A stretch of DNA of 64,000 nt from an uncultured Gammaproteobacteria bacterium (GTDB lineage: Bacteria; Patescibacteriota; Patescibacteriia; Magasanikbacterales; UBA922): contig CAZFKS010000006.1 of assembly GCA_964519725.1 (NCBI GenBank), forward strand, positions 355 through 64,354. Reading direction: 5' to 3'. The position numbers were made by a program, and so were the translations under genes. The notes beneath the pieces were generated by a model, which had not been told where the DNA came from, searched no databases, and saw only the letters and a list, made by a program, of their open reading frames with translations. Of the stretch, positions 5,172-64,000 are shown piece by piece. Numbering within the stretch: position 1 is the first letter of the stretch; the number at the start of each line of letters is the position of its first letter.

Positions 5172-5202
5172 TAGCCAAAAAATAACCGACTTATTAAGTC
5201 GG
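5172..5202 (-). terminator. Rho-independent terminator overlapping the response-regulator stop codon
   Basis: On the minus strand, CCGACTTAATAAGTCGG forms a perfect 8-bp stem containing the TAA stop. It is followed by TTATTTTTTGG. Confidence 0.5.
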
Positions 5203-5865: not shown

Positions 5866-6022
5866 ACTGGAGCAGTATATGCACAGATTTTTTAGTTTGT
5901 AAATACGCGGACCATAAATTGCCAACCACTGGGCACAAAAGTTATGCACAATGGGAAGCGCGGCAGTCAGATTGACCAGATCTGACTGCCGGTTTTGAGG
6001 TGGGTTCCCCTCGGGAGAGGGG

Positions 6023-8032: not shown

Positions 8033-8091
8033 GACTGCCTCCTGGCAAAATTGAAGTTGACGAACTGGAAACCGAAGAAACATTAATCTTG

Positions 8092-8144
8092 AAATTGCTT
8101 CGGAGTTTAATGACACAGAGTATCACTAAAATCCGAAGCAATTT
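8092..8144. promoter_or_regulatory. 13-bp perfect inverted repeat upstream of the Cys-repeat gene
   Basis: AAATTGCTTCGGA (8092-8104) pairs with TCCGAAGCAATTT (8132-8144), 27-nt spacer. On the plus strand it is followed by GGTCATTTTTTCC. Confidence 0.3.
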
Positions 8145-40898: not shown

Positions 40899-40901
40899 AA
40901 T

Positions 40902-47332: not shown

Positions 47333-47361
47333 TTGACATCAGTAGCTTAAATACCTATACT
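47333..47361 (+). promoter_or_regulatory. canonical sigma-70 promoter (TTGACA-N17-TATACT) for the second glycan operon
   Basis: TTGACA at 47333-38, 17-nt spacer, TATACT at 47356-61, ~20 nt before the 47381 ATG. Confidence 0.55.
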
Positions 47362-49392: not shown

Positions 49393-50913
49393 ATGAAAGC
49401 GTGTCTATATTTACAACGTCGATTTGCTTACATTGGTCATGAGCTAGCCAAAACTTTAAAAGCTGATTTTGGTGTGAGTGAATTTTGTGGTTATGTGGAA
49501 CAGCGCTCCTCACTAAAATTTTTACAAGAACAAAAGGATATTAATTACAGTACCCTTCTTCTTGATGAAGATATTGTGGGGGCTTATGCTAATGAACCAT
49601 TAAATTTGGCTTACTTAGCTGAGCTGGAAAAAAAATACGGTAAGCCGAGTCTGTGGCCTTATTTGGCTGAAGATCGGGTGATTCGTTATTCACTGTTAGT
49701 GCGGGCCTACCCCTCTGATTCTTCACGCTATTCGCACGAAGAAATGCTTAGAATGCTCCAGACCACAGCTCGGGCAATTGAAGACATGCTCGAAAAAGAA
49801 AAACCAGATTTTATTTTCATGTCAGTAATCAGTGGGCTAGGTAGTTATCTACTCTATACCATTGCTAAGGCTAAAGGGATTAAAACCTACAGTTTGTTTA
49901 ATCCGCGGATTGAAGAACGCTACGCGATTACTGATAATCCTTTTTCTGATCCCACTTTGCGTGATTCAATAATGAAAATGGGTGAACATCGGCCCGAAGA
50001 TAAAGTGTTTATTTCTAGAGCCGAAGAATTTATTGCTGAATTTAGAAAAAAACCAACCTATTATTTAGAAAAATCAAAAGCCGCGGCCCATTATCAGAAA
50101 AAAAATAATCGCGCTTCATATTTTTCTTTTTTAGCACTCGCAAATCTCAATCGAACTGTGAGTTGGTTTTTCAAATCTTTTTACGATTTTTATAACAGCC
50201 CAGCCAAAAATGATTACTCAACCATTAACCCTTGGTACGAAACCTGGGATAAGGCCAAACGCAAAGCCCGGATTTTGCGGGGTTATAATGATTTGTTTGA
50301 TCAAATTAAGCCAGATGAGGATTATGCGTTTTTTCCGCTCCAAAGCGAACCAGAGGGTTTGCCAATGCTCTTGGCCCCTAACTACGCTACTGATCAGATT
50401 TGGGTGGTAAAACAAGTAGCCCGCTCTTTGCCAGTACACTTTAAATTGTATGTTAAGGAGCATCCGGTCATGATTGGAAAAAGACCACGTTCTTATTATG
50501 AGGCATTAAAAAAGATTCCTAATGTGCGGCTGCTAAATCCAGGTTTGTCGGCCTTAGCTTTAATTGATAAAGCAAAACTTATTTTTACCATTAGTAGCAC
50601 TACTGGAATGGAAGCAGTTTTGCTCGGCAAACCAATCATTACCTTGTCTGATGTGTTTTACGCGGTGATTCCTGGCGTGGGGCGGTGCCGGTCAGTTGAA
50701 GAACTGCCTGAGCTAGTCAAAGAAAAATTAACTAATTTTAAAAGTAATGAAACTGACATAGTAAATACCGTCGCTTTTTTCTTGAAAGAAAGTGTGCCAG
50801 TAGATTTAACCCAGCTCTGGGATGTTGAAGGTGGAAGCACAATTCAGAATCAGCGCCAAACTTTGTACCCACTGGCTGAATTACTCATGAAAAAGGTCAG
50901 TAAGTTGTTATAA
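49393..50913 (+). CDS. capsule-polysaccharide-biosynthesis (KpsS/KpsC, Capsule_synth/GT107-like) protein
   Basis: YAFFPLQSEPEGLPMLLAPNY resembles the Capsule_synth 'PLQ' block. ~500 aa, soluble. Confidence 0.45.
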   Translation: MKACLYLQRRFAYIGHELAKTLKADFGVSEFCGYVEQRSSLKFLQEQKDINYSTLLLDEDIVGAYANEPLNLAYLAELEKKYGKPSLWPYLAEDRVIRYSLLVRAYPSDSSRYSHEEMLRMLQTTARAIEDMLEKEKPDFIFMSVISGLGSYLLYTIAKAKGIKTYSLFNPRIEERYAITDNPFSDPTLRDSIMKMGEHRPEDKVFISRAEEFIAEFRKKPTYYLEKSKAAAHYQKKNNRASYFSFLALANLNRTVSWFFKSFYDFYNSPAKNDYSTINPWYETWDKAKRKARILRGYNDLFDQIKPDEDYAFFPLQSEPEGLPMLLAPNYATDQIWVVKQVARSLPVHFKLYVKEHPVMIGKRPRSYYEALKKIPNVRLLNPGLSALALIDKAKLIFTISSTTGMEAVLLGKPIITLSDVFYAVIPGVGRCRSVEELPELVKEKLTNFKSNETDIVNTVAFFLKESVPVDLTQLWDVEGGSTIQNQRQTLYPLAELLMKKVSKLL

Positions 50914-50915: not shown

Positions 50916-53171
50916 ATGTCTAAACCAGTCAAAATTATTGCTACACTTGGTCCGGCTACAAAAACTGAAGCAGCCGTTCGTTTACTCAAAGATCGGGGTG
51001 TGGATTTAGTGCGCGTAAACATGTCGCACTCAAATTTGACTGACCTTAGGTATTTTATTGATTTAGCTAAAAAGGTTGGGATTCCGTTTGTGCTTGATAC
51101 TGAAGGCTCACAAATTCGAACTGGGGCTTTAACTGAAAAAATGATTTATGTTGAAGAGGGGGCTGAGATAGCTCTGTACGCTGACGCAATTATTGGGGAT
51201 AGTACCAAGCTAACCTTAACCCCACACACGGTTGTTAGTGAACTAGAAGCAGGAGATATTTTGCGCGTGGATTTTGACACTTTGATTTTGCGCGTCAATG
51301 ACACCAGTACGGTTAAACAAGGATTTATCAAAGCCACGGCTGTATCAGCCGGTTACGTGGGCAATAATAAAGGCGTGGTGGTGGATACGGGCACGCCGCG
51401 CAACTTTACCCTGCCTGGTTTAACCGCCAAAGATCGAGAAGCGATTGCCATTGGCTTGGCCGAAGGCGTGGGTTACATTGCGGCTTCATTTATGCGCTCA
51501 GCGGCTTATGTAGATGAAGTACGGGAAGTCACTAAAGGAACCATGAAAATTATTTCTAAAATTGAGTGTGTTGATGGTCTAGAAAATTTAGACGAAATTA
51601 TTGAGGCCACTGATTTTTTACTAATTGATCGGGGTGATTTAAGTAAGGAAATTCCTTTGGAAAAAATTCCTTTGACCCAAAAAATTATTTTGCACCGGGC
51701 ACGCCAAAAAAATAAAGGTGTGTTTGTGGCGACTAATTTGCTAGAAACCATGGTGGAAAAAAAGAAACCAACGCGCGCTGAAATTCACGATGTGGTAAAT
51801 ACAATTATGGATGGTGCTTATGGTTTGGCCCTGTCAGCTGAAACAGCAATTGGTAAATATCCAGTTGAATGCGCTACGATGCTTAATCGTTTGATCTTGC
51901 ACATTGATAAAACTGTGGCTGTAAAAGATTTTGTATCAGAAGAAGACAAACTGGTGGCCAAAATGGAGTCAGATAATTATTTGTTAAATATTGAATCAGC
52001 CTCTACTTTAATTGAGCCACACGGCGGCAAATTAGTTGACCGCATGCTAAAGAAAAAACCTGAGACAGCCTGGCTTAAAACCTTACCAAAAATTGCCCTG
52101 GATGATAATGCGGAAATGGATGTGGAGCAAATTGCGATCGGCACTTTTAGTCCGCTAACTGGTTTCATGGGTGAAAAAGAAGTGCAGAGTGTGCTTGATA
52201 CCATGCGTTTACCAAATGGTTTGATTTGGCCACTGCCAATTGTCCTGGATGTAAATGAAGAAACCGCTAAAAAATTAGAAGTCGGTAAACAGGCGGTGCT
52301 CCAAAGTGTTCAGGGAACAGCCTTGGCTCTTATTACCGTGAGTGAATTATATTCGATTGATAAAAAAGAATTTGCCGAAAAATTATACGGTACCTTAGAT
52401 GAGACTCACCCTGGGGTGGCGCGGGTGATGAAAATGAACCCAGTCTTAGTGGCTGGGGCGATTGATTTGTTTGAGCGCCGTCCATCTGAAACCAGGGCCT
52501 ATGAATTAACCCCACGGCAAGTGCGTCGTTTGTTTGATGAGCGCGGCTGGACCAAAGTAGTTGGTTTTCATACCCGCAATGTTATTCACCGTAGTCATGA
52601 ATTTATTCAATTAAAAGCCATGGAACAGGAATTGTGTGATGGCCTGTTTGTACACCCAGTAATTGGAAAGAAAAAACCTCGTGATTTTAATGCTCCTTAC
52701 ATTATCAAGAGCTATGAAATGATGATGAAGGATTTTTATCCTCGCAATAAAGTGGTGTTTGCTACTTACGCTACTTTTTCTCGTTACGCTGGTCCGCGTG
52801 AAGCACTGTTTACTGCTCTCTGCCGGCAAAACTTTGGCTGTAGTCACTTTATTGTTGGACGCGATCACACGGGAGTTGGGAAATTTTACGCACCAACGGC
52901 GTCACATGATATTTTTGATCAATTTCCTGATTTGAAAATTAAACCCGTGCGTTTTGAACAAGTTTTTTACTCTGCTAAAAAGAATGACCACGTGCACGAG
53001 GCGGAAGATACTGAACATGCTCAAGACGAGAAACTTCACATTAGTGGGACTGAAGCGCGCAAAATGTTAGAAAAAGGCCAGCTTCCACCCAACTGGTTTA
53101 TGCGTCCAGAAATTTCAGAGATGATTCTAAAGGCGCTGGCTAATGGCGAAGAAGTTTTTGTTAAAGAATAA
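50916..53171 (+). CDS. fusion protein: pyruvate-kinase-like TIM-barrel domain (N) + sulfate adenylyltransferase / ATP sulfurylase (C)
   Basis: N-terminal ~340 aa: IIATLGPAT...LVRVNMSHSN...LDTEGSQIRTG...ISKIECVDGLENLDEII...DRGDLSKEIP...VATNLLETM. The PK active-site Arg/Asn, Lys-Ile-Glu, Asp and Thr are all kept, and there is no PK C-terminal domain. C-terminal ~400 aa: HTRNVIHRSHE and IVGRDHTGVG are ATP-sulfurylase signatures. It is a single uninterrupted ORF. Confidence 0.7.
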   Translation: MSKPVKIIATLGPATKTEAAVRLLKDRGVDLVRVNMSHSNLTDLRYFIDLAKKVGIPFVLDTEGSQIRTGALTEKMIYVEEGAEIALYADAIIGDSTKLTLTPHTVVSELEAGDILRVDFDTLILRVNDTSTVKQGFIKATAVSAGYVGNNKGVVVDTGTPRNFTLPGLTAKDREAIAIGLAEGVGYIAASFMRSAAYVDEVREVTKGTMKIISKIECVDGLENLDEIIEATDFLLIDRGDLSKEIPLEKIPLTQKIILHRARQKNKGVFVATNLLETMVEKKKPTRAEIHDVVNTIMDGAYGLALSAETAIGKYPVECATMLNRLILHIDKTVAVKDFVSEEDKLVAKMESDNYLLNIESASTLIEPHGGKLVDRMLKKKPETAWLKTLPKIALDDNAEMDVEQIAIGTFSPLTGFMGEKEVQSVLDTMRLPNGLIWPLPIVLDVNEETAKKLEVGKQAVLQSVQGTALALITVSELYSIDKKEFAEKLYGTLDETHPGVARVMKMNPVLVAGAIDLFERRPSETRAYELTPRQVRRLFDERGWTKVVGFHTRNVIHRSHEFIQLKAMEQELCDGLFVHPVIGKKKPRDFNAPYIIKSYEMMMKDFYPRNKVVFATYATFSRYAGPREALFTALCRQNFGCSHFIVGRDHTGVGKFYAPTASHDIFDQFPDLKIKPVRFEQVFYSAKKNDHVHEAEDTEHAQDEKLHISGTEARKMLEKGQLPPNWFMRPEISEMILKALANGEEVFVKE

Positions 53172-53173: not shown

Positions 53174-54430
53174 ATGACAAGCCTTAATGCTTTAGAATTG
53201 TCGCGTTTCATCTTTGCTCTTGTCGCTCTGGTAGCTGGTGCACATTGTTTGGGGTGGGTTTTTCAAAAGTGTAAAATGCCCAAGGTAATTGGGGAGATTA
53301 GTGCCGGTTTATTGCTTGGCCCAACAGTTTTAGGTTGGCTTTACCCGGTTGGATATAGTTATTTATTTACCAGTTTTCCAGAATCAAGCAAATTATTATC
53401 ACTCATGTCATCATTTGGCTTGATTTTTCTCATGTTTATTTCTGGATTTGAATCCAAAGAAAAAATTGCTAAACCAGATCAAAAAATTGTTGTTAACTTG
53501 CTTTTGGGAGCCACAATCATTCCACTCTTAGGTGGTTGGTTTATTCCTAAAATATTCGATATCAAGCCATTTTTAGGTACAGCCAATAATCTCCCGGCAC
53601 TCACTGCAATTTTGGCTTTGGCAGTAGCTGTCACTTCAATTCCAGTGATTGCAAAAATTTTTCTTGACCTCGGTCTGATCCAAACTAGGTTTGCCCGTCT
53701 TGTTTTGGCCGTAGCCACGCTTGAAGATATTATTTTGTGGGGAATTCTGGCGGTAGTGAGTGGTGTAATTGTCAAAGGTGATACGTCGGTTACAAGTATC
53801 TTGGTTAGTGTGGCTATTACCATGGCATTTTTTGTGGTTGCGCTTTTGGTAGTACCGCGAGTCATAAAACCAATCAGTAATAATCGGTTTAACATATTAA
53901 TAAAAGCATCGCCAGTTTCATATATTTTAATTATTTGTTTAATTTTTTCTTTTTTAGCTAGTGTACTCAATGTAAATTTAATTTTTGGTGCTTTATTGGC
54001 GGGCATTATCGTCGCTCGCATGAATGATGAGCGTTTTGAAAAAGTAAAAAATACGATCAAAGATTTTTCCGTTGCCCTCTTTATTCCGGTCTATTTTGCT
54101 GTGGTTGGTTTAAAATTAGATTTAGTACATGCGTTCGATGTCTCTGCCTTTATTACGTTTCTATTGTTTGCCATAGTACTAAAAACTGCAGGTACTTTAA
54201 TTGCCGCCAAGGGTTTGAGAATGAACTGGACCTCAAGCGTAAATTTTGCGGTGGCTTTGAATGCACGCGGTGGCCCTGGTATTGTCTTGGCAACAGTGGC
54301 GTATGACCTTGGAATTATTAACCAAAGTTTGTTTGTAATTTTGGTTATGACCGCGATTGTTACTTCACTTTTGGCGGGTATTTGGTTTAGAAGGGAACGT
54401 GAAAGTGGCCGTGAATTATTACCAGAATAA
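53174..54430 (+). CDS. cation:proton antiporter (CPA/Na_H_exchanger family) membrane protein
   Basis: MPKVIGEISAGLLLGPTVLGWL is the N-terminal CPA signature. ~12 TM segments. Confidence 0.6.
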   Translation: MTSLNALELSRFIFALVALVAGAHCLGWVFQKCKMPKVIGEISAGLLLGPTVLGWLYPVGYSYLFTSFPESSKLLSLMSSFGLIFLMFISGFESKEKIAKPDQKIVVNLLLGATIIPLLGGWFIPKIFDIKPFLGTANNLPALTAILALAVAVTSIPVIAKIFLDLGLIQTRFARLVLAVATLEDIILWGILAVVSGVIVKGDTSVTSILVSVAITMAFFVVALLVVPRVIKPISNNRFNILIKASPVSYILIICLIFSFLASVLNVNLIFGALLAGIIVARMNDERFEKVKNTIKDFSVALFIPVYFAVVGLKLDLVHAFDVSAFITFLLFAIVLKTAGTLIAAKGLRMNWTSSVNFAVALNARGGPGIVLATVAYDLGIINQSLFVILVMTAIVTSLLAGIWFRRERESGRELLPE

Positions 54431-54431: not shown

Positions 54432-54959
54432 ATGAGTACAATTCTTTGGTTTACTGGTTTAAGCGGGAGTGGCAAGACCACCTTGGCTTTTTTGCTCAAA
54501 GAAAAATTAGAACAAGGTGGCAAAACAGTCACTATTGTGGATGGTGACACGGTGCGTGATAAATATGAACAGAAATTAGGTTTTACCAGAGCTGATATTA
54601 TTCAAAATAATGACCGCATCACCACGTACATAACTGAAATTAAAAACCAGTTTGATTTTATTTTAGTGCCAGTGATTGCGCCGTTTAGTGAAGTACGTGC
54701 GGCCAATAAAACCAAATTGGGGGCAGATTATTTAGAAATTTATGTGTCATGCCCAGTGGCGGTGTGTGCGGAGCGTGATGTAAAAGGTCTGTATGCCAAA
54801 GCTGAACGTGGTGAAATTGAAGCCATGATTGGGATTGATCCGCAAAAACCATACGAAGTTCCAACTAACCCCGATCTGATCATTGATACAGTTAATCAGA
54901 GTCAGTCAGAAAACATTGAAGCTTTGCTAGAATGGTTAAAGGGTCTGCAGAAAATATGA
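54432..54959 (+). CDS. cysC: adenylyl-sulfate (APS) kinase
   Basis: The ATG at 54432 gives ILWFTGLSGSGKTTLA...VDGDTVR, P-loop APS-kinase motifs. The track start 54357 is an extension. Confidence 0.85.
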   Translation: MSTILWFTGLSGSGKTTLAFLLKEKLEQGGKTVTIVDGDTVRDKYEQKLGFTRADIIQNNDRITTYITEIKNQFDFILVPVIAPFSEVRAANKTKLGADYLEIYVSCPVAVCAERDVKGLYAKAERGEIEAMIGIDPQKPYEVPTNPDLIIDTVNQSQSENIEALLEWLKGLQKI

Positions 54960-55753
54960 CCCCATCATTTTCGTCAGATTTGGTTTTGGCTATTCAGGCG
55001 GCTGAGGCGGCTGGTAAAGCCGTAACGCAAATTTATCAAACTGATTATTCATTCCAAATCAAGTCAGACAATTCGCCAGTAACAGAGGCTGATTTGGTGA
55101 GTGATCAAATCATTAGTACAACTTTAGCAAAAACTAATTACCCAATTAGTTCTGAGGAAAATGAACATCTGACCGATTGTAGTGTGGGTAAGGCCTGGAT
55201 CGTTGATCCACTTGATGGGACGAAAGATTTTATTGCAAAAACTGGCGAATTTACAATTTTAATTGGTTTAATTGAAAATGGACAAGCTGTGGCCGGGGTA
55301 ATTTACCAGCCAACCACTAATTTGATTTGGGTGGCGGAAAAAGGCAAGGGCGCTTATAAGCGGGTGCAAAATAATTGGGAAAAAATTTGGGTAAGAGAAC
55401 AGACTGAACTTAGCACAGCGCAGGTCACCATGAGTCGACACCATTTAGGAGAACTAGAAAAAAATATTTTGCAGACTTTGGGTTTAAGCTACACCTCAAA
55501 AGGTAGCTGCGGTTATAAAATGGCCCAAATTGCTTCGGGGAAGTTTGATCTTTACTTTGCGTTTGGGCCCAAACAGTGGGACATATGCGCTGGTGACATT
55601 ATTTTGGCTGAGGCCGGGGGTAGTTTAACCCAGGTCACGGGCGAACCCATTCAGTACGGTGGTTTGGACAGGAAAATTCCTAATGGTATAATCGCTGCCA
55701 GTGGTGTACACCGCCAATTTATTGATTTTTACAAACAGTATGGCAAAAACTAA
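54956..55753 (+). CDS. cysQ: 3'(2'),5'-bisphosphate nucleotidase (inositol-monophosphatase fold, CysQ-like)
   Basis: ATGA overlap with cysC. EENEHL...WIVDPLDGTKDFI...WDICAG motifs. Confidence 0.75.
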   Translation: MTPSFSSDLVLAIQAAEAAGKAVTQIYQTDYSFQIKSDNSPVTEADLVSDQIISTTLAKTNYPISSEENEHLTDCSVGKAWIVDPLDGTKDFIAKTGEFTILIGLIENGQAVAGVIYQPTTNLIWVAEKGKGAYKRVQNNWEKIWVREQTELSTAQVTMSRHHLGELEKNILQTLGLSYTSKGSCGYKMAQIASGKFDLYFAFGPKQWDICAGDIILAEAGGSLTQVTGEPIQYGGLDRKIPNGIIAASGVHRQFIDFYKQYGKN

Positions 55754-56702
55754 AGCCGTGGTTGGGGAGCGCAAACCATTTGTTAAAAAGCTGCTTTTGG
55801 TAGAAGGTATTTCTCGGTCTGGAAAATTTCTCATGGCTGATCTTTTGGGTGGCTTAGAAGGTATTGAGGCCGTCCAGTATTATGGACTTTTAGAACACAT
55901 TCCATTTTTGGAAAAGTTTGGGTTAATGGACCGTAAAACTGCTAGTGAAATTTTAAAGTGTGAAATTGATACGCATGCTTATGAAATGGCGATTGGGCGT
56001 AATTTTAATCACCGGAAAACGGACAAATCATCAATTCATAAAAATCCGCACGCGGCTAAATTTCTCAAACGCCCAGAACAAAGTGATCTAGAAAAATTAC
56101 TGGCTGAATATCGCAAGCAGGATCCATATAGTTTTTTTGTCATGCACGAGCTTATTCCGAACGCGAAAATATTTTTTGAAACTTTTCCAAATTTAAAAAT
56201 TGTTAGTTTGCAGCGCAGCCCAGTGGAATTAGTAGATTCGTGGTATCGTCGCGGGTTGGCAAAACGCCTGGGTGATGATCCAACGTTATTTATTATTCCT
56301 TTTAAAAAAGGCAAAGCTAAGTTTCCGTGGTATGCGGTGGGCCAGGAAAAAGAATACAGCCAACTAACTGATATGGATCGGACAATTTTTGCCATTGAGC
56401 GAATTGTAAGTCTGTATGCAGAAGGTTTGAAGAAATTAAATAAAAAAGAGCAGGCCCAAATTTTGTTTGTACGGTACGAAGATATCATGACTGATACTAA
56501 AGTGGTAGTAAAAAAGATTAGTAACTTTTTGGGTAAAAAACCCGTGAAACAACTGGCGGCGGTGCTTAAGCGAGAGCGGTTACCAAACCTTGCTTACCGT
56601 GGCACACGTGAGCAAAAATTGCAAAGCATTAAAAAATTGGCCAGCCCAAGTTATTTCAAGCGTTTGCAAAAATTAGAGGCCAAATATTTGATTAGCCAGT
56701 AA
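55740..56702 (+). CDS. putative PAPS-dependent sulfotransferase
   Basis: LLLVEGISRSGKFLMADLL resembles the 5'-PSB loop of bacterial/Stf0-type sulfotransferases. The C-terminal VRYEDIMTD...ISNFLG resembles the sulfotransferase tail. It sits right after sat/cysC/cysQ. Confidence 0.4.
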   Translation: MAKTKAVVGERKPFVKKLLLVEGISRSGKFLMADLLGGLEGIEAVQYYGLLEHIPFLEKFGLMDRKTASEILKCEIDTHAYEMAIGRNFNHRKTDKSSIHKNPHAAKFLKRPEQSDLEKLLAEYRKQDPYSFFVMHELIPNAKIFFETFPNLKIVSLQRSPVELVDSWYRRGLAKRLGDDPTLFIIPFKKGKAKFPWYAVGQEKEYSQLTDMDRTIFAIERIVSLYAEGLKKLNKKEQAQILFVRYEDIMTDTKVVVKKISNFLGKKPVKQLAAVLKRERLPNLAYRGTREQKLQSIKKLASPSYFKRLQKLEAKYLISQ

Positions 56703-56703: not shown

Positions 56704-57462
56704 ATGAAAAATATTCGTCTGATTCCCCGCCTTGATATTAAAGGCGAAAATGTTGTGAAGCCGGTTCAAACTGAAGCTTTGCGAGTGGTTGGTGATCCAA
56801 CGGTTTTGGCCAAGCGCTACTACGAAGAGGGAGCGGACGAGTTGTTGTACTTAGATATTGTGGCTAGTTTATACCAACGAAACATTGATTTTGACTTATT
56901 AAAAAAAGTGACTGAGGGAATTTTCATTCCAGTTACGGTTGGTGGTGGAATTCGAACGATTCAAGATATTAATAATGCGCTCAGAGCTGGGGCTGATAAA
57001 GTGGCCATCAACACTCATGTTATTCATCATCCCGAATTTATTACTGAGGCAGTTCAGGAATTTGGAGCACAGTGTATTACTGTATATATTGAGGCTAAAC
57101 GAAGACCAAATGGTAGTTACGAGGCTTATACAGATGGTGGTCGAGAGCGGAGCGGAGTTGAAGTCATTAGCTGGGCTAAGCGGGCGGTCGAATTAGGTGC
57201 GGGTGAAATTTTAATTACTTCAATTGATGCTGATGGAACAAAAAATGGTTTTGATTTGGAATTAATTAAACAAATCACAGCGTGGGCCACAGTGCCAGTG
57301 ATTGCTCATGGTGGAGCCTGTGATCCAGCTTCAATTGCTAGGGTGATTATCGAGGGTCAAGCTGACGCAGTCGCCGCGTCAACTATTTTTCACTTTGAAG
57401 AGTATTCAATTCCGACTGTAAAAAAATATTTACAGGCAGAAAAAATTCCAGTCCGCCTATGA
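56704..57462 (+). CDS. HisF-like cyclase subunit paralogue (WbuZ-type) of a sugar amidotransferase complex
   Basis: IRLIPRLDIKGENVVKPVQTEALRVVGDPTVLAKRYYEEGADELLYLDIVAS is a HisF fold. Confidence 0.8.
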   Translation: MKNIRLIPRLDIKGENVVKPVQTEALRVVGDPTVLAKRYYEEGADELLYLDIVASLYQRNIDFDLLKKVTEGIFIPVTVGGGIRTIQDINNALRAGADKVAINTHVIHHPEFITEAVQEFGAQCITVYIEAKRRPNGSYEAYTDGGRERSGVEVISWAKRAVELGAGEILITSIDADGTKNGFDLELIKQITAWATVPVIAHGGACDPASIARVIIEGQADAVAASTIFHFEEYSIPTVKKYLQAEKIPVRL

Positions 57463-58094
57463 CTCAACCAATTGTTGTAATCATTGATTATGGCGTGGGA
57501 AATTTGCACAGCTTAGCGCGCGCGTTCCGGGCGGTTGGAGCAAACCCAATTATTTCCAGTGATCCTGAAATGATTAAAACCGCCCCTCGGTTAGTTTTGC
57601 CTGGTGTAGGTGCGTTTGCGGCTGGCATGCACGGGCTTCAGGAACGCGGCCTAGAAGCCGCAGTCTTAGCGGCCGCAGCTAGAAACATCCCAATTTTAGG
57701 GATTTGTTTAGGGGCGCAGCTACTTTTGACTGAAGGCCATGAATTTGGTATTTTTAAAGGGTTAAATTTGATTCCTGGTACAGTGGAACGTTTCCCTGAT
57801 TTGCCAGAAAAAGAGAAAATTCCTCATATGGGTTGGAATCAAATTACCCCAGCCTCAGGTAAGGAATGGTCAGACACTATTTTATCAGGCACAGAAGGAA
57901 AAGAAACGTATTTTCTCCATTCTTATATTTTGCGCCCGACAGACAAACAAGATTGTTTGTCAGAAACAACGTATGGTGGCTACACTTTTTGTTCAGTGGT
58001 TAAAAAAAATAACATTACTGGTTGTCAGTTTCATCCAGAAAAAAGTGGTGAAGTTGGTTTAGAAATTATTAGAAATTTTTCCAAGAGCGTATGA
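57459..58094 (+). CDS. HisH-like glutamine amidotransferase subunit (WbuY-type)
   Basis: IVVIIDYGVGNLHSLARAF...LVLPGVGAF...CLGAQ...QFHPEKS is a class I GATase triad. ATGA overlap. Confidence 0.8.
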   Translation: MTQPIVVIIDYGVGNLHSLARAFRAVGANPIISSDPEMIKTAPRLVLPGVGAFAAGMHGLQERGLEAAVLAAAARNIPILGICLGAQLLLTEGHEFGIFKGLNLIPGTVERFPDLPEKEKIPHMGWNQITPASGKEWSDTILSGTEGKETYFLHSYILRPTDKQDCLSETTYGGYTFCSVVKKNNITGCQFHPEKSGEVGLEIIRNFSKSV

Positions 58095-59278
58095 GTTTAA
58101 ATACTCTGGATAAGCAATTAAGTGAACAGCAAGCTGAAGTTTTTTATTGCACTAAATGTGTAGTTTCTAACCAACGCCCGCGGGTAACTTTTGATGAAAA
58201 TGGAGTGTGTGCCGCGTGTCAGTACGCTGAGATTAAACATCAGCGCATTGATTGGGCTGCTCGCGAAGCTGAACTAAAAGTTTTACTGGATAAACACCGT
58301 TCGACTGACGGTAGTTTTGATGTTGTAGTGCCTGGTAGTGGTGGCAAAGACAGCGCGTACGTAGCTCATCTTTTAAAGACTGAATATGGAATGCACCCGC
58401 TCGTTGTGACCTGGGCTCCATTTATTTACACTGAGATTGGGTGGAAGAATTTTCAAAATTTTATCCAAGCTGGTTTTACTGATTTAAATTGTTTTCCTGA
58501 CGCGACTATTCACCGCAAATTAGCCCGGATTGCCTTTGAATTAAAAGGTGATGCTTGGGAACCATTTGGCTATGGTCAAAAATCTTACGCTTTTCACATT
58601 GCCACCAAATTTAAAATTCCACTTATTTTTTACGGAGAAAATGGAGAAGCAGAATATGGCGGGTCACTGCAAAATGCTTATAAACCCTACGAATCAGTGG
58701 AAGATTGGGAGCGTTTATATTACAAAGGTTCGGGGGTTGACGCTTTGGCTGAAGCAGGTCTTGAAATGGGAATTTTTAAACCAGGCGAAATTGAGCCACA
58801 CACGTTAGATTTGTACAAAGCTCCACCTCTTGAAGAAATCAATAAACTGGGTATCCAGATGCACTGGATGTCATATTACCGCAAGTGGGTGCCACAGGAA
58901 AATTTTTACTACGCGCAAAAAAATACTGGTTTTACTACTAATGAAGATGGTCGTTCAGAAGGTACGTATTCTAAATATGCTAGTCTGGATGATAAAACTG
59001 ATGGTTTTCATTTTTATCTTGGTTTTATTAAGTTTGGTTTAGGACGAGCCACTCGCGACGCCATGATGGAAATTCGGTCTGGGCATATTACCCGTGAAGA
59101 AGCCGTGGCTCTAGTTCGCCGGTATGATGGCGAATTTCCAAAAAAATATTTTAAAGAATTTTTAGAATACTTGAATATTACTGAAGAAAAATTTTGGGAA
59201 GTGGTTGATCGCTACCGTGCGCCACATCTTTGGGAAAAAGTTAATGGTGAGTGGAAATTAAAATATCAAGTTGAATAA
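58091..59278 (+). CDS. N-acetyl-sugar amidotransferase (WbuX/PseA/LegAm-type, PP-loop)
   Basis: FYCTKCVVSNQRPRVTFDENGVCAACQY is a Zn-ribbon. VVVPGSGGKDSAYVAHLL is a PP-loop. ATGA overlap. Confidence 0.75.
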   Translation: MSLNTLDKQLSEQQAEVFYCTKCVVSNQRPRVTFDENGVCAACQYAEIKHQRIDWAAREAELKVLLDKHRSTDGSFDVVVPGSGGKDSAYVAHLLKTEYGMHPLVVTWAPFIYTEIGWKNFQNFIQAGFTDLNCFPDATIHRKLARIAFELKGDAWEPFGYGQKSYAFHIATKFKIPLIFYGENGEAEYGGSLQNAYKPYESVEDWERLYYKGSGVDALAEAGLEMGIFKPGEIEPHTLDLYKAPPLEEINKLGIQMHWMSYYRKWVPQENFYYAQKNTGFTTNEDGRSEGTYSKYASLDDKTDGFHFYLGFIKFGLGRATRDAMMEIRSGHITREEAVALVRRYDGEFPKKYFKEFLEYLNITEEKFWEVVDRYRAPHLWEKVNGEWKLKYQVE

Positions 59279-59279
59279 T

Positions 59280-60020
59280 ATGTCTAAACCCGAGGTGCTG
59301 GCGATTATTCCGGCGAGACTTGGCTCTAAACGAATCCCGCTAAAAAATATTAAAAATTTTTTAGGTAAGCCTTTATTGGCTTACACCATTGAGCAGGCCC
59401 GGAAAACTCCGTTTATTACCCGGGTCATTGTTGATACTGACTCACCAAAAATTGCGGCCATCGCCAAAAAATATGGGGCAGAAGTCCCATTCTTGCGTCC
59501 TGCTCACTTAGCGACTGATACAGCCAAAGTGTATGATAGTTTTGAACATGCCCTGCACAAATTAAAAAAAGATGAAGGGTACACCCCTGATTACCTGGTG
59601 ATTTTGCAAACCACCTCACCACTTCGTGAATTAAAAGACATTACCGCGTGCTGGGAGATGATCCAAAAAACCAAGGCCACCACTGTGCTCACCGTTTGTC
59701 CGACTCACCCACGGTTGTATCACTTAAGCAAAACTAATGATATTGAGCTGGTTAATGGGACTGAGAAATTGTCTACTAATATGCAGGCCTGGCCAGCTGG
59801 ATACCTACTCAATGGCTGTTTTGTGTACATTGTTAAAACCAAAGTTTTACTCAAAGAAAAAGTAATTATTACCAAAAAAACCAAAGCTGTGGTTTGTCCC
59901 AAGTGGCGCTCAGTGGATTTAGATACGCCAGAAGAGTGGGTGATGGCTGAAGTGCTTTATAAAAATCAAGCAAAAATTAAAGCCCAATTGAAAAAAATGG
60001 GCGCCACTGATTCTTTATGA
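59280..60020 (+). CDS. CMP-nonulosonic acid synthetase (acylneuraminate cytidylyltransferase family)
   Basis: The ATG at 59280 gives VLAIIPARLGSKRIPLKNIKNFLGKPLLAYTIEQA...VIVDTDS...FLRPAHLATD. The track start is a TTG at 59271. Confidence 0.85.
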   Translation: MSKPEVLAIIPARLGSKRIPLKNIKNFLGKPLLAYTIEQARKTPFITRVIVDTDSPKIAAIAKKYGAEVPFLRPAHLATDTAKVYDSFEHALHKLKKDEGYTPDYLVILQTTSPLRELKDITACWEMIQKTKATTVLTVCPTHPRLYHLSKTNDIELVNGTEKLSTNMQAWPAGYLLNGCFVYIVKTKVLLKEKVIITKKTKAVVCPKWRSVDLDTPEEWVMAEVLYKNQAKIKAQLKKMGATDSL

Positions 60021-60952
60021 TTGGTTTAATTGGGTTTGGGTCAATTGGTGAAAGGCACTACCAAAATTTAATTGCGGCTGGTGAAAAGGTCGTGGTTTTT
60101 TCGGCACGTAATGATTTATCAAATATTACCGCCACTAATAAGTGGACCGAATTTCAGAAACTTGGTCCATACCAAGCCGTTTTTATTTGCAATGAAACAG
60201 CCAAACATTTGCAGACTATTAAAAAAGTAATGGCCCTTAAACCCCAGGCAATTTTTATTGAAAAACCGCTCAGTCATAACTCAGTTGGTTTACGTAATTT
60301 AGCCAAAGAATTGCAAAAACAAAAGATTAGTTTATGGGTGGGTTATAATATGCATTTTTTGCGCCCGCTCATGCGCATTAAAGAAATTATTACTAGTAAA
60401 AAAATTGGAAAAGTTTTGTATTTGCGCGCTGCTGTAGGACAAGATTTGCGTGAGTGGCGCAAACGTGATTATAAACAAATTTACTCAGCCAAGAAAAAAG
60501 GCGGTGGTGGTGTGCTACTGGATTTAGTGCATGATTTAAATTACCCAGCCTGGTTACTTGGTGAAACGTTAATTCCTAAAGCCGCCCTGGTCAGAAAATC
60601 TTCCTCATTAGCAATTGATGTTGAAGATTCAGCTGATAGTTTACTCGCCACCAAAAGCGGCACCATTGTTTCTGTACACCAAGATTATTGTCGCGTGCCA
60701 GGTAAGCGCACTCTGGAAGTTCAGGGCGAAAAGGGGAGTATAGAGTGGGATTCGCTCACTAATTCAGTGATTATCGCCACCAAAGATAAACGAATTGAAG
60801 AAAAATTTAATTTAGATCGTAACGAAATGTACACGGCTGAGTTGGCCTTTTTCCTTAAACAATTGCGCGGTAAAAAATATTTCTCTAATCTGGCTGAAGC
60901 TGTTACAGACGTAATCAATATTGAAAAAATCAAACAGTATGGAAAGAAATAA
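60017..60952 (+). CDS. Gfo/Idh/MocA-family NAD(P)-dependent oxidoreductase
   Basis: MIGLIGFGSIGERHYQNL...IFIEKPLS. Confidence 0.7.
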   Translation: MIGLIGFGSIGERHYQNLIAAGEKVVVFSARNDLSNITATNKWTEFQKLGPYQAVFICNETAKHLQTIKKVMALKPQAIFIEKPLSHNSVGLRNLAKELQKQKISLWVGYNMHFLRPLMRIKEIITSKKIGKVLYLRAAVGQDLREWRKRDYKQIYSAKKKGGGGVLLDLVHDLNYPAWLLGETLIPKAALVRKSSSLAIDVEDSADSLLATKSGTIVSVHQDYCRVPGKRTLEVQGEKGSIEWDSLTNSVIIATKDKRIEEKFNLDRNEMYTAELAFFLKQLRGKKYFSNLAEAVTDVINIEKIKQYGKK

Positions 60953-61940
60953 ATTTAGTTTTTTACAGGTTGGCCTGGGGTCAATGGGTAAGCGCCGGAT
61001 TCGTAACTTACTTTTTCATGGTATCCCTAAAGAGCAAATTTTTGGTTTTGATCCAAGTCCAGAAAGAGCGGCTGAAGTCACGGAAAAATACGGGGTGCAA
61101 ACATTCACCGATTTAGCTGAAGCTGAAAAACAAAATCCCGCTGTCTATGTAATTTCTACCCCACCAAACCGACATTTAGAATATTGTTTGCGCGCGGCTG
61201 AGCAGAAAAAACATTTTTTTGTGGAAGTCGGGGTCGATGATCAGGGTTATGATAAACTGGCCAGCCTATTAGATAATTCATTTGTCGCTGCGCCATCCTG
61301 CACGTTTCGGTATTTGCCACCAGTAAAAAAAATTACTGAATTAGTGGCTGAGGAAAAAATTGGTAAAGTATTAACTTTTACCTATCATTTGGGGCAGTAT
61401 TTACCAGATTGGCACCCTTGGGAAGATTACCGTAAAGTATATTTTGCGCAAAAAGAAACCAGTGCTTGCCGTGAAATGTTTGTGTTTGAGTTGATTTGGT
61501 TAACTAAGGTTTTAGGTACTCAGATTAAAAAAGTGTACGGCGGTTTTACTGGACGCATTTCTGAATTAGAAATGACGGCTGATGATTTATCAGCCTCTGT
61601 GCTAGGTTTTGAAAATGGAGTGGTTGGGTCAATGGTAATTGAAGTTTTAGCGCGCACACCATTCCGCACTCTTCGCCTCATTGGTACTGAAGGGGTTTTA
61701 GAGTGGGAATGGAAAGCCAATCAAATTCGAATTTTCGAAAAGAAAACTGAAGCCTGGGAAACGATTTCTTTGGTTGAGGGTAAAAAGGAAGCAGGTTATG
61801 TGACCACTGAAGACATGTATGAGGAAGAAATGAATGTCTTTTTGAGTGCGTTAGAAGGTAAGGCACCATATCCATATACCTTTACTGAAGACCAAAAAAT
61901 AATTCAAGCCCTGCGTGCGCTTGAAAAACCATACCTTTAA
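60938..61940 (+). CDS. Gfo/Idh/MocA-like oxidoreductase (second copy)
   Basis: The ATG at 60938 gives FLQVGLGSMGKRRIRNL...VYVISTPPNRHLEY. The track start is a TTG at 60921. Confidence 0.55.
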
Positions 61941-61941
61941 T

Positions 61942-62997
61942 ATGAACACTCTTGTCGTCGGCCACAAAAAAATCGGTCCACCTGAACCAGTGTTTATTAT
62001 TGCTGAGGCTGGGGTAAATCATAATGGTGATTTGGAACTGGCGAAAAAATTAATTGCTGTGGCGGCTGAAGCTGGAGCTGACGCAGTTAAATTTCAAACA
62101 TTTAGTGCTGAAAATCTAGTCACTGGCACGGCTGACCAAGCCGAATATCAACGTAAAAATATTGGCAAAACTGAATCGCAGTTTGAGATGTTAAAGCGTC
62201 TTGAACTACCGAAAGCGTGGCACAGTGAGTTGCAAACTTATGCAACAGAAAAGAATATATTATTTTTGTCAACACCGTTTTCTGAACCAGACGCTGATTT
62301 TTTGGAAACTTTAAATTTACCAGCTTATAAAATCCCATCTGGTGAAATAAATAATCTGCCCTATTTGCACCACATTGCGAAAAAAAATCGGCCCATGATT
62401 ATCTCGACTGGTATGTCAACCTTGGCCGAAGTAAAAACCGCGGTTAAAACAGTACAAGCAGCTGGTAATAATGAAATTATTATTTTACATAGTACTTCTA
62501 ATTATCCACCTAGTTTGGCTAGTTTAAATTTGTTGGCTATTAGCACACTTCAAGCTGAATTCCCTGATTGTTTAGTTGGTTATTCAGATAATGGTGCGCC
62601 GGGTGTGGCCCCAGAAATTATCGCCACCACCCTGGGTGCTTGCGTGATTGAAAAACATTTTACTCTGGACAAAACCATGGCTGGTCCAGACCACCTGGCT
62701 TCTTTGGGCCCCACTGAACTTAAAGAAATGGTACAAGCAATTCGTCAGACAACTACGATGCTGGGTAATGGTGTTAAGGAATGTCAGCCAGAAGAAATTT
62801 CAATCAAAGCCATGGCACGGAAAAGTTTGATTAGTAAACATGAAATTTCTGCTGGTCAGGTGCTTACTCTTAATGATATTATTATAAAGCGTCCGGGTAA
62901 TGGCATTCCACCAACAGAGCTGGAACGGGTGATTGGAAAAAAAACTAACACCATTATTCCGGCTGATACAGTGATTACTTGGGAACAACTAGTATGA
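61942..62997 (+). CDS. nonulosonic acid synthase (NeuB/LegI/PseI family, with SAF domain)
   Basis: The ATG at 61942 gives FIIAEAGVNHNGDLELAKKLIAVAAEAGADAVKFQTF. The C-terminus has the SAF-like LISKHEISAGQVLT. The track start is a GTG at 61915. Confidence 0.85.
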   Translation: MNTLVVGHKKIGPPEPVFIIAEAGVNHNGDLELAKKLIAVAAEAGADAVKFQTFSAENLVTGTADQAEYQRKNIGKTESQFEMLKRLELPKAWHSELQTYATEKNILFLSTPFSEPDADFLETLNLPAYKIPSGEINNLPYLHHIAKKNRPMIISTGMSTLAEVKTAVKTVQAAGNNEIIILHSTSNYPPSLASLNLLAISTLQAEFPDCLVGYSDNGAPGVAPEIIATTLGACVIEKHFTLDKTMAGPDHLASLGPTELKEMVQAIRQTTTMLGNGVKECQPEEISIKAMARKSLISKHEISAGQVLTLNDIIIKRPGNGIPPTELERVIGKKTNTIIPADTVITWEQLV

Positions 62998-64000
62998 GTT
63001 TAAAACGAGCCACAATTTTAGTAGTGACTGGTACTCGGGCTGAGTATGGTCTTTTTAGCTCTACGTTTGCAGAGTTGAAAAAGAGTAAGGTTCTAAATTA
63101 CCGCGTTTTAGTGACCGGTAGTCACACCTTGCGGCGTTATGGCAATACAATTCAAGAAATTCGCAAAGATAAAGAGCGAATTGATGCGATTGTTCCAGTG
63201 CGTGAGTTCGACACTATGGTTGAGTGTTTGGCGACTGAGATGATTGGGATTGAAAAATATTTAGTAAAAAATAAGCCAGAGCTTGTTTTGGTACTGGGTG
63301 ATCGGGATGAACCTTTGGCTGCGGCACTAGCCGCGGCTCACCACGGTATCCCAGTCGTTCATGTGCATGGTGGTGATGTTACGGCCGGTGTGGTTGATGA
63401 TGCGATTAGAGCCATGCTCACCAAAATTGCTAGTCTACACTTTGCTATTTCACCACGCAGTGCGAATAATATTTTTACTTTGGGTGAAGAAAAATGGCGC
63501 ATTCATGTGGTTGGCGCCCCAGGTCTAGATGCGCTCCGCACCATGAAATTTCCCAATCGTACTGCTTTAGCCAAACAGTATGGTCTTGATCCGAAGAAGC
63601 CTTGGTATTTAGTGCTGCAGCACCCAACCCCACTTGACTCTCTGTCCGCAGACAAACAAATTAAACCTATTTTAGACGTGATGCAAAAAATTGAGGGAGA
63701 AAAAATTGCTATTTTTCCTAACACTGACACTGGTTCTCGTACCATTATTAGCGCGCTTAGTAAACTTAAGAAAAAATCTGATTGGCATTTGTTTCCTAAT
63801 TTGCCGCGCCAAACTTACTTAAGTTTCCTTAAATATTCCGCAGCTTTGGTTGGTAACTCAAGTTCAGGTATTATTGAGTCAACATTTTTCAAAATTCCAG
63901 TGATTAATATTGGGAATCGTCAGCGCGGCCGCGAATGTGGGGCCAATGTTTTGCACGTTGGTTACTCGGCAACAGAAATTAGAACTGCGTTAGCCAAAAT
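62994..64000 (+). CDS. UDP-N-acetylglucosamine 2-epimerase (hydrolysing; NeuC/LegG-like), 3' end outside the window
   Basis: ATGA overlap. ILVVTGTRAEYGL...VLVLGDRDEPLAAALAAAHHGIPVVHVHGGD. No in-frame stop before 64000. Confidence 0.8.
   Translation, partial: MSLKRATILVVTGTRAEYGLFSSTFAELKKSKVLNYRVLVTGSHTLRRYGNTIQEIRKDKERIDAIVPVREFDTMVECLATEMIGIEKYLVKNKPELVLVLGDRDEPLAAALAAAHHGIPVVHVHGGDVTAGVVDDAIRAMLTKIASLHFAISPRSANNIFTLGEEKWRIHVVGAPGLDALRTMKFPNRTALAKQYGLDPKKPWYLVLQHPTPLDSLSADKQIKPILDVMQKIEGEKIAIFPNTDTGSRTIISALSKLKKKSDWHLFPNLPRQTYLSFLKYSAALVGNSSSGIIESTFFKIPVINIGNRQRGRECGANVLHVGYSATEIRTALAK

Follow-up and report, generated by a model that had tools for sequence, protein, structure and literature searches.

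A patescibacterial gene cassette that probably produces a legionaminic-acid-type nonulosonic acid with non-standard N-acyl groups

The stretch of 64,000 nucleotides studied here (hereafter the window; contig CAZFKS010000006.1 of GenBank assembly GCA_964519725.1, from an uncultured bacterium placed by its GTDB lineage in the Patescibacteria) ends in a gene cluster for the synthesis of a nonulosonic acid (NulO), a sialic-acid-like sugar. Eight tightly packed open reading frames (ORFs), several of which overlap by 4 bp, occupy positions 56704-64000 on the plus strand; they encode, in this order, a HisF-like barrel protein, a HisH-type glutaminase, a WbuX-type amidotransferase, a cytidine 5'-monophosphate (CMP)-nonulosonate synthetase (NeuA), two Gfo/Idh/MocA oxidoreductases (Gfo1 and Gfo2), a NeuB-family synthase and a NeuC-type 2-epimerase. 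All eight had been named in an earlier reading of the DNA made from the letters alone (the sequence-only reading), and profile searches bear out each of these names through strong family matches, far beyond chance. In our view, the operon on balance probably makes a CMP-activated, legionaminic acid (Leg)-type 5,7-diamino-3,5,7,9-tetradeoxy-nonulosonic acid that carries non-standard N-acyl groups, the predicted product being CMP-Leg5Am7Fo (5-acetamidino, 7-formamido) or an epimer thereof.

In the envisioned route, genes are assigned by family and the chemistry by analogy. It would begin with the action of a PseB/SpsM-type 4,6-dehydratase on UDP-N-acetylglucosamine (UDP-GlcNAc), a step for which the gene comes from syntenic relatives only. 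A DegT-family aminotransferase, the start of whose gene lies on a contig from the same sample and whose full gene is found in relatives, would then form the 4-amino sugar, and a formyltransferase encoded on the same-sample contig would N-formylate the 4-amine instead of acetylating it, a substrate suggested by the slot that its gene occupies. The LegG-like NeuC enzyme is expected to remove the nucleotide and to invert C2, the SpsE/LegI-like NeuB protein would condense the product with phosphoenolpyruvate (PEP), and NeuA would convert the resulting NulO into the CMP-sugar. HisH would free ammonia from glutamine, the HisF-like barrel would relay it, and WbuX would use it together with ATP to turn the N5 acetamido group into an acetamidino group, likely at the CMP-sugar stage by analogy with Campylobacter. 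Gfo1 and Gfo2, finally, might act with NeuA by re-setting one hydroxyl stereocentre of the CMP-sugar (for instance at C8) through oxidation and reduction; this is the weakest step of the proposal.

Sample SRR11567520 contributes two short Logan contigs whose sequence is identical to that of the window, L001 (7.1 kb) and L002 (3.5 kb); the latter matches the window over positions 61540-64000 and extends it by about 1 kb. Gene calls on these identical public contigs and ortholog alignments led to revised starts for NeuA (59280, as called on L001), Gfo2 (60939) and NeuB (61942).

The CMP-nonulosonate synthetase (59280-60020, plus strand; NeuA/LegF/PseF type) matches the CTP_transf_3 family with an E-value of 1.1e-28 and reaches 167 bits with the PseF model (cut-off 205.7), while Kdo (3-deoxy-manno-octulosonic acid) cytidylyltransferase models score far lower. 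When compared with proteins of known structure in the PDB, it is closest to NeuA 9FTB (114.8 bits), followed by NmCNS (85.5 bits) and the Aeromonas caviae PseF enzyme 6IFD (82.3 bits), with KdsB enzymes at 38 bits or less; it is thus nearer to the NeuA/PseF group than to KdsB, and these scores do not separate the subtypes LegF, PseF and NeuA from each other. The possibility that the cluster encodes Kdo or KDN (2-keto-3-deoxy-nononic acid) enzymes, which would have been at odds with the sequence-only reading, was rejected on the strength of this gap (83-115 bits versus at most 38 bits) and of the membership of the synthase in the NeuB family. The latter enzyme (61942-62997, plus strand), a LegI/SpsE-like nonulosonate synthase, scores 427.9 bits with TIGR03569 (cut-off 399.65) and 298.2 bits with the PseI model (cut-off 340.25), and its best PDB match is SpsE from Bacillus subtilis (1VLI; 239.7 bits), ahead of PseI (8H2C; 184 bits) and NmNeuB (170.5 bits). 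SpsE is needed to make legionaminic acid in the UDP-linked pathway of B. subtilis (PMC7439481).

The NeuC/LegG-type hydrolysing nucleotide-sugar 2-epimerase (62994-64000, plus strand) is cut by the window edge; L002 reveals a full protein of 383 amino acids that ends at about 64145 in window coordinates. It scores 354.3 bits with TIGR03568 (cut-off 235.9) but only 82.7 bits with the non-hydrolysing WecB model, and its best PDB match is LegG, the GDP/UDP-diNAcBac (di-N-acetylbacillosamine) 2-epimerase of Acinetobacter baumannii (5XVS; 201 bits), compared with 47.2 bits for SiaA of Neisseria meningitidis (6VLB). Genes for a PseG-like hydrolase were found neither in the window nor on L002 nor among the syntenic cassettes that were examined. 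By these comparisons, the back end of the pathway, NeuC and NeuB, is Leg-like. Since a LegG-like NeuC and an SpsE-like NeuB occur without PseG, the ambiguity that the sequence-only reading had left between a legionaminic and a pseudaminic acid (Pse) pathway resolves toward a Leg-type route. We conclude that this route would proceed via a 2-epimerised, manno-configured hexose; the data support a pathway to a 5,7-diamino nonulosonic acid rather than to Kdo, KDN or plain N-acetylneuraminic acid (Neu5Ac).

Beyond the window end, L002 encodes a 265-amino-acid formyltransferase of the Formyl_trans_N family directly after NeuC and then, for 22 codons, the beginning of a DegT aminotransferase. This last gene opens with MKQYPLARPSIGPEEIKAVTET, an N-terminus that matches those of DegT aminotransferases in the same position in relatives, such as MKKYPVAKPYITSEEINAVTRVL in locus L013. 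In the syntenic relative L005/L007, whose Gfo1 is 57% identical to that of the window, the order of genes is sulfation module, HisF, HisH, WbuX, NeuA, Gfo1 and Gfo2, then four additional genes, and then NeuB, NeuC, formyltransferase, DegT aminotransferase and Polysacc_synt_2-type dehydratase; the same cassette core recurs in L013, L015, L019, L021, L088, L093, L094 and L101. The sequence-only reading had placed a dehydratase, an aminotransferase and an N-acetyltransferase just past the window end. The extension by about 1 kb supplies the formyltransferase and the start of the aminotransferase, and synteny in relatives supplies the complete aminotransferase and the dehydratase; the expected N-acetyltransferase did not materialise, its slot being taken by the formyltransferase. 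Indeed, neither the window nor the formyltransferase-type cassettes contain a hexapeptide or GNAT acetyltransferase of the LegH, PglD or PseH type. The four extra genes of L005 (12019-15495), which lie between Gfo2 and NeuB, encode proteins of 267 and 301 amino acids that match no family, a 217-amino-acid ferredoxin-reductase-like FAD/NAD protein and a 239-amino-acid protein with no assigned family; they could represent a further oxidative tailoring step.

Gfo1 (60017-60952, plus strand) is a PtmF/ElaA-type dehydrogenase with matches to three Gfo/Idh/MocA domains. It is distant from the solved members of this superfamily (58 bits or less in the PDB), but the lysine of its EKP motif (K83), D169 and H172 are invariant among 29 orthologs, and the counterparts of K83 and H172 have been named as catalytic residues in ElaA (PMC13656337). 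Gfo2 (60939-61940, plus strand) is a divergent paralog (26% identity to Gfo1; 2e-18) that sits where a short-chain dehydrogenase/reductase (SDR) of the PtmA/ElaC type is usually encoded. It retains the Rossmann motif GLGSMGKRR and has an invariant motif of its own, GQYLPDWHPWEDYR. Its AlphaFold2 (AF2) model, with a predicted local distance difference test score (pLDDT) of 94.5, displays the Gfo/Idh/MocA fold at a template-modelling score (TM) of about 0.8 in Foldseek; structure prediction and Foldseek gave no clue to its substrate.

Among the fetched loci, Gfo1 adjoins NeuA nearly always and Gfo1-NeuA-SDR is the commonest arrangement; in 58 of 62 loci, no more than 400 bp separate the SDR gene from NeuA or Gfo1. 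This is the arrangement of PtmF-LegF-PtmA in Campylobacter and Plesiomonas (PMC4481668) and of ElaA-ElaB-ElaC in A. baumannii KL49 (PMC13656337). No homolog of the PtmA/ElaC-type SDR is present in the window, and loci with NeuA hardly ever combine this SDR with Gfo2. Gfo2 is found without Gfo1 in several cassettes and is therefore not merely a partner subunit of the latter. The two oxidoreductases of the sequence-only reading are thus present, but they are not generic ones: judged by homology and gene order, NeuA-Gfo1-Gfo2 is a variant of the PtmF-LegF-PtmA/ElaABC module in which a Gfo paralog replaces the SDR. The ORFs scanned between about 11.8 and 64 kb include no PtmE-type nucleotidyltransferase, PgmL or GlmU for the formation of GDP-GlcNAc; the absence of a PtmE-type enzyme favours a redox or epimerising role of Gfo1 and Gfo2 on the CMP-sugar, a role that we propose with low confidence.

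This module bears directly on the best-surviving alternative to a product of legionaminic configuration, namely that the cassette makes another stereoisomer, either of the pseudaminic type or a hybrid such as 8-epi-legionaminic or acinetaminic acid, by means of a C5-inverting dehydratase or of epimerisation by Gfo1 and Gfo2. ElaA together with ElaC has been proposed to epimerise C8 of CMP-Leg5Ac7Ac and thereby to yield 8-epi-Leg (PMC13656337), and Gfo1 keeps the lysine and the histidine of the ElaA type. Moreover, the dehydratase of a syntenic relative scores best with the PseB model (318 bits; cut-off 407.75), its best PDB matches being Pen, PseB and CapE structures, and the aminotransferase of such a relative reaches 342 bits with the PseC model versus 295 bits with that for LegC. 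However, both enzymes remain below all curated LegB, LegC, PseB and PseC cut-offs, and the PDB matches of the aminotransferase (perosamine synthase, 285 bits; PseC and PglE, about 173 bits each) do not discriminate. The L005 dehydratase carries the motif T-x9-M-x3-K, which is common to SpsM, PglF and CapE; SpsM, which has this Met-type motif and is CapE/PseB-like, serves as the dehydratase of the true Leg pathway in B. subtilis (PMC7439481). Both the NeuC-type 2-epimerase and the synthase, which is NeuB/SpsE-like, speak for a precursor of manno configuration, and a PseG-type hydrolase is missing. Taken as a whole, another stereoisomer therefore appears to us as a rather unlikely competitor; a strict Pse assignment is unlikely, and an epimer of Leg is a quite possible product.

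The evidence for a Leg-type sugar with an amidino group comes from the three genes at the head of the cluster. The HisF-like, WbuZ-type barrel (56704-57462, plus strand) matches His_biosynth at 2.2e-65 and scores 290.5 bits with the hisF model (cut-off 294.55) and 271.4 bits with that for WbuZ (cut-off 299.7); it is presumed to be the ammonia-channelling partner of the amidotransferase. The HisH-type class-I glutaminase (57459-58094, plus strand; WbuY type) scores 201.5 bits with TIGR01855 (cut-off 105.4) and retains the nucleophile motif GICLG (Cys83) and the FHPE motif that contributes His and Glu. WbuX (58091-59278, plus strand), a PP-loop N-acetyl sugar amidotransferase (NASAT), scores 351.4 bits with TIGR03573 (cut-off 203.2), and among proteins of solved structure it is closest to the Legionella pneumophila N-acetyl sugar amidotransferase (8WEX; 327.6 bits). 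By analogy with the family, an acetamido group activated by ATP would be attacked by glutamine-derived ammonia that arrives through the HisF-like barrel. The NASAT family is defined by a PP-loop and by the zinc-binding tetracysteine motif CxxC...[GN]xCxxC (PMC10607449), and the window protein has both, with SGGKDS at residues 83-88, CTKC at 20-23 and GVCAAC at 38-43. In Campylobacter, the amidino group is known to arise at the stage of the CMP-sugar (PMC5378307).

HisF, HisH and WbuX adjoin NeuA, Gfo1 and NeuB in dozens of loci from several phyla, in collections seeded with Gfo1 as well as with the sulfotransferase described below; the loci that combine the trio with NulO genes come from Patescibacteria, SAR86-like contigs, Elusimicrobia and Micrarchaeota. 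A genuine role of HisF and HisH in histidine biosynthesis was considered and rejected, as the HisF-HisH-WbuX synteny recurs in NulO cassettes. These data support a functional tie between the amidotransferase trio and the NulO pathway, and the core of the sequence-only reading, a nonulosonic acid pathway coupled to a WbuXYZ-type amidotransferase, holds.

The same synteny has to be set against the idea that the trio amidinates some other N-acetyl sugar of the same glycan and leaves the NulO N-acetylated. Enzymes of the WbuX family serve several types of sugars, WbuX and WbpG being listed as homologs (PMC10607449), and the window is a large glycan island in which many glycosyltransferases are encoded alongside further sugar genes. 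The WbuXYZ proteins of Escherichia coli O145 make FucNAm, the amidino form of N-acetylfucosamine (FucNAc), and the O145 glycan also contains Neu5Ac. In the present case, however, the trio is contiguous with NeuA, Gfo1 and NeuB across phyla, no FnlABC or Wbp-type pathway is encoded in the window, and the closest solved homolog of WbuX stems from L. pneumophila. The O-antigen of this bacterium consists of Leg5Am7Ac. We consider amidination of another sugar to be improbable.

The second non-standard group, at N7 of the proposed Leg-type product, is deduced from the slot between NeuC and the aminotransferase. It is filled by the 265-amino-acid formyltransferase in four independent cassettes (the window, L005/L007, L093 and L101), by a hexapeptide acyltransferase of 134-140 amino acids in seven loci, by a full Fmt-like enzyme in L015, and by a PHP::ATP-grasp fusion in L019, L021 and L096. 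Such variability is the pattern expected of an enzyme that acylates the 4-amino group destined to become N7 of the NulO. The catalytic triad of the formyltransferase, Asn-His-Asp, is intact (N107, H109 and D146), PseJ formyltransferase structures are among its PDB matches (6CI2; 36.7 bits, a weak match), and there is a precedent for formylated, Leg-type CMP-NulOs made with an in-cluster formyltransferase (bioRxiv 10.64898/2026.04.20.719630). If N7 is formylated, then N5, whose acetamido group is inherited from GlcNAc, offers the sole remaining substrate for WbuX, and the product would be Leg5Am7Fo. The PHP::ATP-grasp (PylC-like) fusion found in other cassettes is about 557 amino acids long (L019, 13135-14811; L021, 13981-15651; also L096) and suggests an ATP-dependent ligation of a carboxylate or an amino acid to N7.

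Alternatively, the formyltransferase might serve the synthesis of N-formylperosamine, with the NulO N7 being acylated by an enzyme encoded elsewhere. The window contains a GDP-mannose 4,6-dehydratase gene, gmd (492.5 bits; cut-off 415), beside a DegT aminotransferase gene, and a Brucella-type GDP-perosamine N-formyltransferase is found among the top, yet weak, PDB matches of the formyltransferase (47.7 bits). The formyltransferase gene is separated from gmd by about 18 kb, however, L005 possesses no gmd within 10 kb, and in each of its four independent cassettes the enzyme sits in the position that other acylating enzymes hold in sister cassettes, so that we give this explanation little credence. 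An ordinary Neu5Ac pathway of NeuC, NeuB and NeuA amid unrelated decoration genes is hardly credible: NeuB exceeds the cut-off of the N-acetylneuraminate synthase model and NeuC that of the NeuC_NnaA model, but NeuC scores 201 bits against LegG and 47 against N. meningitidis SiaA, NeuB is nearer to SpsE than to NmNeuB, and the same operon continues after NeuC with the formyltransferase and the aminotransferase, followed in relatives by the dehydratase.

Several observations weigh against the route to CMP-Leg5Am7Fo as we propose it and should be carefully considered. The HisF-like protein stays below both of its cut-offs and scores slightly higher with the hisF than with the WbuZ model. The full aminotransferase and the 4,6-dehydratase are known solely from relatives whose Gfo1 identity is 57% or less, and their sub-threshold preference for the PseC and PseB models makes an inverting front end, and with it another stereoisomer, conceivable. 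The formyltransferase is only weakly similar to characterised enzymes (E about 1e-11 in the PDB), and its matches include the GDP-perosamine formyltransferase while gmd and its DegT neighbour lie at 44702-46869. With regard to the redox module, Gfo2 lacks both the EKP lysine and the catalytic histidine, and the PtmF/PtmA pair of Campylobacter jejuni has been assigned to precursor supply, not to epimerisation (PMC4481668).

The cassette continues upstream, as part of the same conserved unit, into a module for the synthesis of 3'-phosphoadenosine 5'-phosphosulfate (PAPS) and for sulfate transfer, which the sequence-only reading did not include. The gene directly preceding that for the HisF-like protein encodes a PAPS-type sulfotransferase of a rare family (55740-56702, plus strand; Sulfotransfer_1, 3e-11), represented by only 52 clusters among 5.8 billion database clusters. 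Its AF2 model has a pLDDT of 95.2; the top Foldseek matches are TPST2, the CurM sulfotransferase and Stf1, at a probability of 1.0 but with TM values of only 0.41-0.47. The conserved motifs GxSRSGK and RSP..SW resemble the 5'-phosphosulfate-binding (5'-PSB) and 3'-phosphate-binding (3'-PB) motifs of such enzymes. The supply of PAPS would be provided by a pyruvate kinase (PK)::ATP-sulfurylase fusion (50916-53171), a CPA2-type transporter (53174-54430), an adenosine 5'-phosphosulfate (APS) kinase (54432-54959) and the 3'-phosphoadenosine 5'-phosphate (PAP) phosphatase CysQ (54932-55753), all encoded on the plus strand, and this set of genes is kept 5' of the sulfotransferase and NulO genes in L003, L005, L011, L021 and L087-L106.

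A metagenome scan seeded with the sulfotransferase (loci L087-L166) placed it beside HisF, HisH and WbuX as well as NeuA, Gfo, NeuB and NeuC in almost every locus with enough flanking sequence. Two clades can be distinguished. Members of clade 1, the Patescibacteria type (43-52% identity), are mostly preceded by the PK::ATP-sulfurylase fusion and APS kinase where the flank suffices; those of clade 2, from freshwater and marine settings (22-26% identity), are usually encoded 3' of WbuX/HisF, with two copies of WbuX in many of the longer loci. In L011 and L106, sulfation genes are interleaved with NulO genes. The near-constant proximity of this sulfotransferase family to WbuX, HisF and NulO genes suggests a sulfated NulO, and, by this strong guilt by association, the PAPS module and the sulfotransferase probably sulfate either the NulO or the glycan that carries it. 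The more specific proposal, a sulfated, CMP-activated 5-acetamidino-7-formamido Leg-type NulO with the sulfate on a hydroxyl group or on the amidine, is a tentative one that we regard as possible but doubtful; under it, the distant clade 2 would act likewise beside the double-WbuX NulO cassettes of freshwater and marine bacteria. In the literature searched, which was limited to what could be searched, we found no report of a sulfated bacterial NulO.

Two components of the PAPS module are worth describing in their own right. The PK::ATP-sulfurylase fusion (751 amino acids) consists of a PK barrel (residues 2-353) that is devoid of the C-terminal regulatory domain, a PUA_2 domain and an ATP-sulfurylase; many patescibacterial cassettes (L003, L005, L011, L021, L087-L106) keep it, at 52-81% identity, 5' of their sulfotransferase gene, and it may couple PEP-driven regeneration of ATP to the activation of sulfate. 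The transporter is of the CPA2/Na_H_exchanger type in the window and in L005, its place being taken in the closest relative, L003, by a 91-amino-acid PQ-loop protein (L003 4131-4406); uptake of sulfate is one possibility for its function.

The operon as a whole appears to run from 47381 to beyond 64000, with the eight NulO and amidotransferase genes as its 3' part. The 500-bp gap before 47381, upstream of the first gene, holds a strong -35/-10 match at 47333-47361, the sole useful one from a promoter and terminator scan of the window in which match counts were no higher than in shuffled sequence. The gene order is GT4 glycosyltransferase, FkbM methyltransferase, Capsule_synth-like protein, PK::ATP-sulfurylase, CPA2-type transporter, APS kinase, CysQ and sulfotransferase, and then the HisF-like gene and those that follow it. 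The Capsule_synth-like protein (49393-50913, plus strand; 506 amino acids) matches Capsule_synth at 6e-09 and scores 42.5 bits with the BFO_1060 family glycosyltransferase model (cut-off 200) and 31.2 bits with TIGR04396. Its gene lies just 5' of those for sulfation and NulO synthesis and has a syntenic counterpart in L003; the protein is a candidate NulO transferase, albeit on weak evidence. The named closest homologs of Gfo1, Gfo2 and the sulfotransferase come nearly all from metagenome bins of Patescibacteria (Candidate Phyla Radiation, CPR), among them Magasanikbacteria, Falkowbacteria, Giovannonibacteria, Yanofskybacteria and Parcubacteria, and a genome of this sort is the most likely origin of the window.

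The window has a GC content of about 41%, and one tRNA was the only hit of an Rfam scan. A single large glycan island, more than 50 kb in length, fills it from about 11 kb onwards; encoded there are seven or more glycosyltransferases of family GT4, four of family GT2, one Wzy_C and one MBOAT protein, an AsnB-like amidotransferase, methyltransferases, and Gmd with its DegT aminotransferase. The genes for the latter two (44702-46869) are convergent, on opposite strands; this aminotransferase is just 34% identical to that of the cassette, and together they probably constitute a branch of the GDP-perosamine type within this island. Additional decoration of the glycan with amide and O-acyl groups is suggested by the genes at 33316-35154 and 39423-42131 (plus strand), whose products are a glutamine amidotransferase of the asparagine-synthase-like type (458 bits), an MBOAT/DltB-like acyltransferase and a protein resembling the GDSL family. 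A 1257-amino-acid protein that matches no Pfam family, followed by a TPR protein and a 668-amino-acid Wzy_C (O-antigen-ligase-like) membrane protein (13197-16970 and 17773-19779, plus strand), could form the acceptor and ligase system of the glycan. Outside the island, the sole high-GC stretch (6023-8116, minus strand; 57.8% versus about 41%) encodes a 697-amino-acid Cys/Asp-rich protein, probably secreted or located at the cell surface, that contains many C-x-x-D-x-C-N-P-x-x-G-C repeat units and, at either end, thrombospondin-type-3-like DxDxDG motifs; its gene adjoins a response-regulator-like ORF (5194-6279).

On many bacteria, nonulosonic acids form the outermost sugars of the surface, those most exposed in immunological and ecological terms; they serve as receptors for phages, imitate sugars of the host and adjust the surface charge. 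It is against this background that episymbiotic, genome-reduced Patescibacteria spend about 17 kb of one operon on a heavily tailored NulO. The literature searched contained nothing relevant that links nonulosonic, pseudaminic or legionaminic acid with Patescibacteria or the Candidate Phyla Radiation. Beyond its host, the cassette is of interest for its swappable N7-acyl slot, which holds a formyl-transferring, acetyl-transferring, Fmt-like or ATP-grasp enzyme depending on the cassette, and for the replacement of the SDR by an atypical Gfo paralog, which could help to settle the role of PtmF/PtmA and ElaA/ElaC. The rare sulfotransferase family has a context made up almost exclusively of amidino-NulO cassettes, and if the NulO is indeed sulfated, then sulfated sialic-acid-like sugars, to our knowledge so far known from animals, exist in bacteria as well.

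A Leg-type NulO pathway coupled to a WbuXYZ-like amidotransferase is of a known kind, represented by C. jejuni, L. pneumophila and Tannerella forsythia, and the present cassette departs from what is known on four counts: a formyltransferase instead of an acetyltransferase, a Gfo paralog instead of the PtmA/ElaC-type SDR, the hard-wired PAPS/sulfotransferase module and the patescibacterial host. The CMP-Leg5Am7Ac pathway of C. jejuni (LegB/C/H/G/I/F, PtmG and PtmF-PtmB-PtmA) likewise uses a NeuC-type hydrolysing 2-epimerase and a NeuB-type synthase, has its CMP synthetase flanked by a Gfo/Idh/MocA oxidoreductase (PMC4481668), and installs the 5-acetamidino group at the CMP-sugar stage by means of a WbuX-family enzyme (PMC5378307; bioRxiv 10.64898/2026.04.20.719630). 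It differs in that the dehydratase of the relatives studied here is of the Polysacc_synt_2 (UDP-GlcNAc) type rather than the LegB type, in that the formyltransferase replaces LegH and a second, atypical Gfo/Idh/MocA protein replaces the PtmA-type SDR, and in that HisH and HisF are encoded beside WbuX. The L. pneumophila enzyme LpNASAT (8WEX) shares the SGGKDS PP-loop and the zinc-binding tetracysteine motif with WbuX (PMC10607449) but contains an extra insertion (468 versus 395 amino acids), and the substrate assignments of both are putative.

The Sps pathway of B. subtilis (SpsM/C/D/G/E/F) resembles the cassette in its SpsE-like NeuB protein and in the SpsM dehydratase motif found in a relative (PMC7439481), but it has no genes for an amidotransferase, a formyltransferase, Gfo/Idh/MocA proteins or a sulfation module. 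A. baumannii KL49 places a Gfo/Idh/MocA dehydrogenase with the catalytic Lys and His beside the CMP-NulO synthetase in its ElaA-ElaB-ElaC set (PMC13656337); the window lacks the ElaC-type SDR and has in its place Gfo2, which is devoid of these two residues. A formyltransferase within an NulO cluster is also known from PseJ (6CI2) and from the Leg-type cluster of Candidatus Kuenenia stuttgartiensis, with N-formyl NulOs occurring as CMP-sugars (bioRxiv 10.64898/2026.04.20.719630), although the latter cluster additionally encodes a deacetylase and has no reported amidotransferase trio. Finally, WbuXYZ of E. coli O145 and WbpG plus HisH2/HisF2 of Pseudomonas aeruginosa share the three-protein scheme in which a glutaminase works with a HisF-like barrel and an amidotransferase of the PP-loop type. 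These two trios amidinate hexosamine derivatives, FucNAc in the former and ManNAc3NAcA (a di-N-acetylated mannuronic acid, converted by WbpG into ManNAc3NAmA) in the latter, whereas the trio described here is embedded in an NulO cassette.

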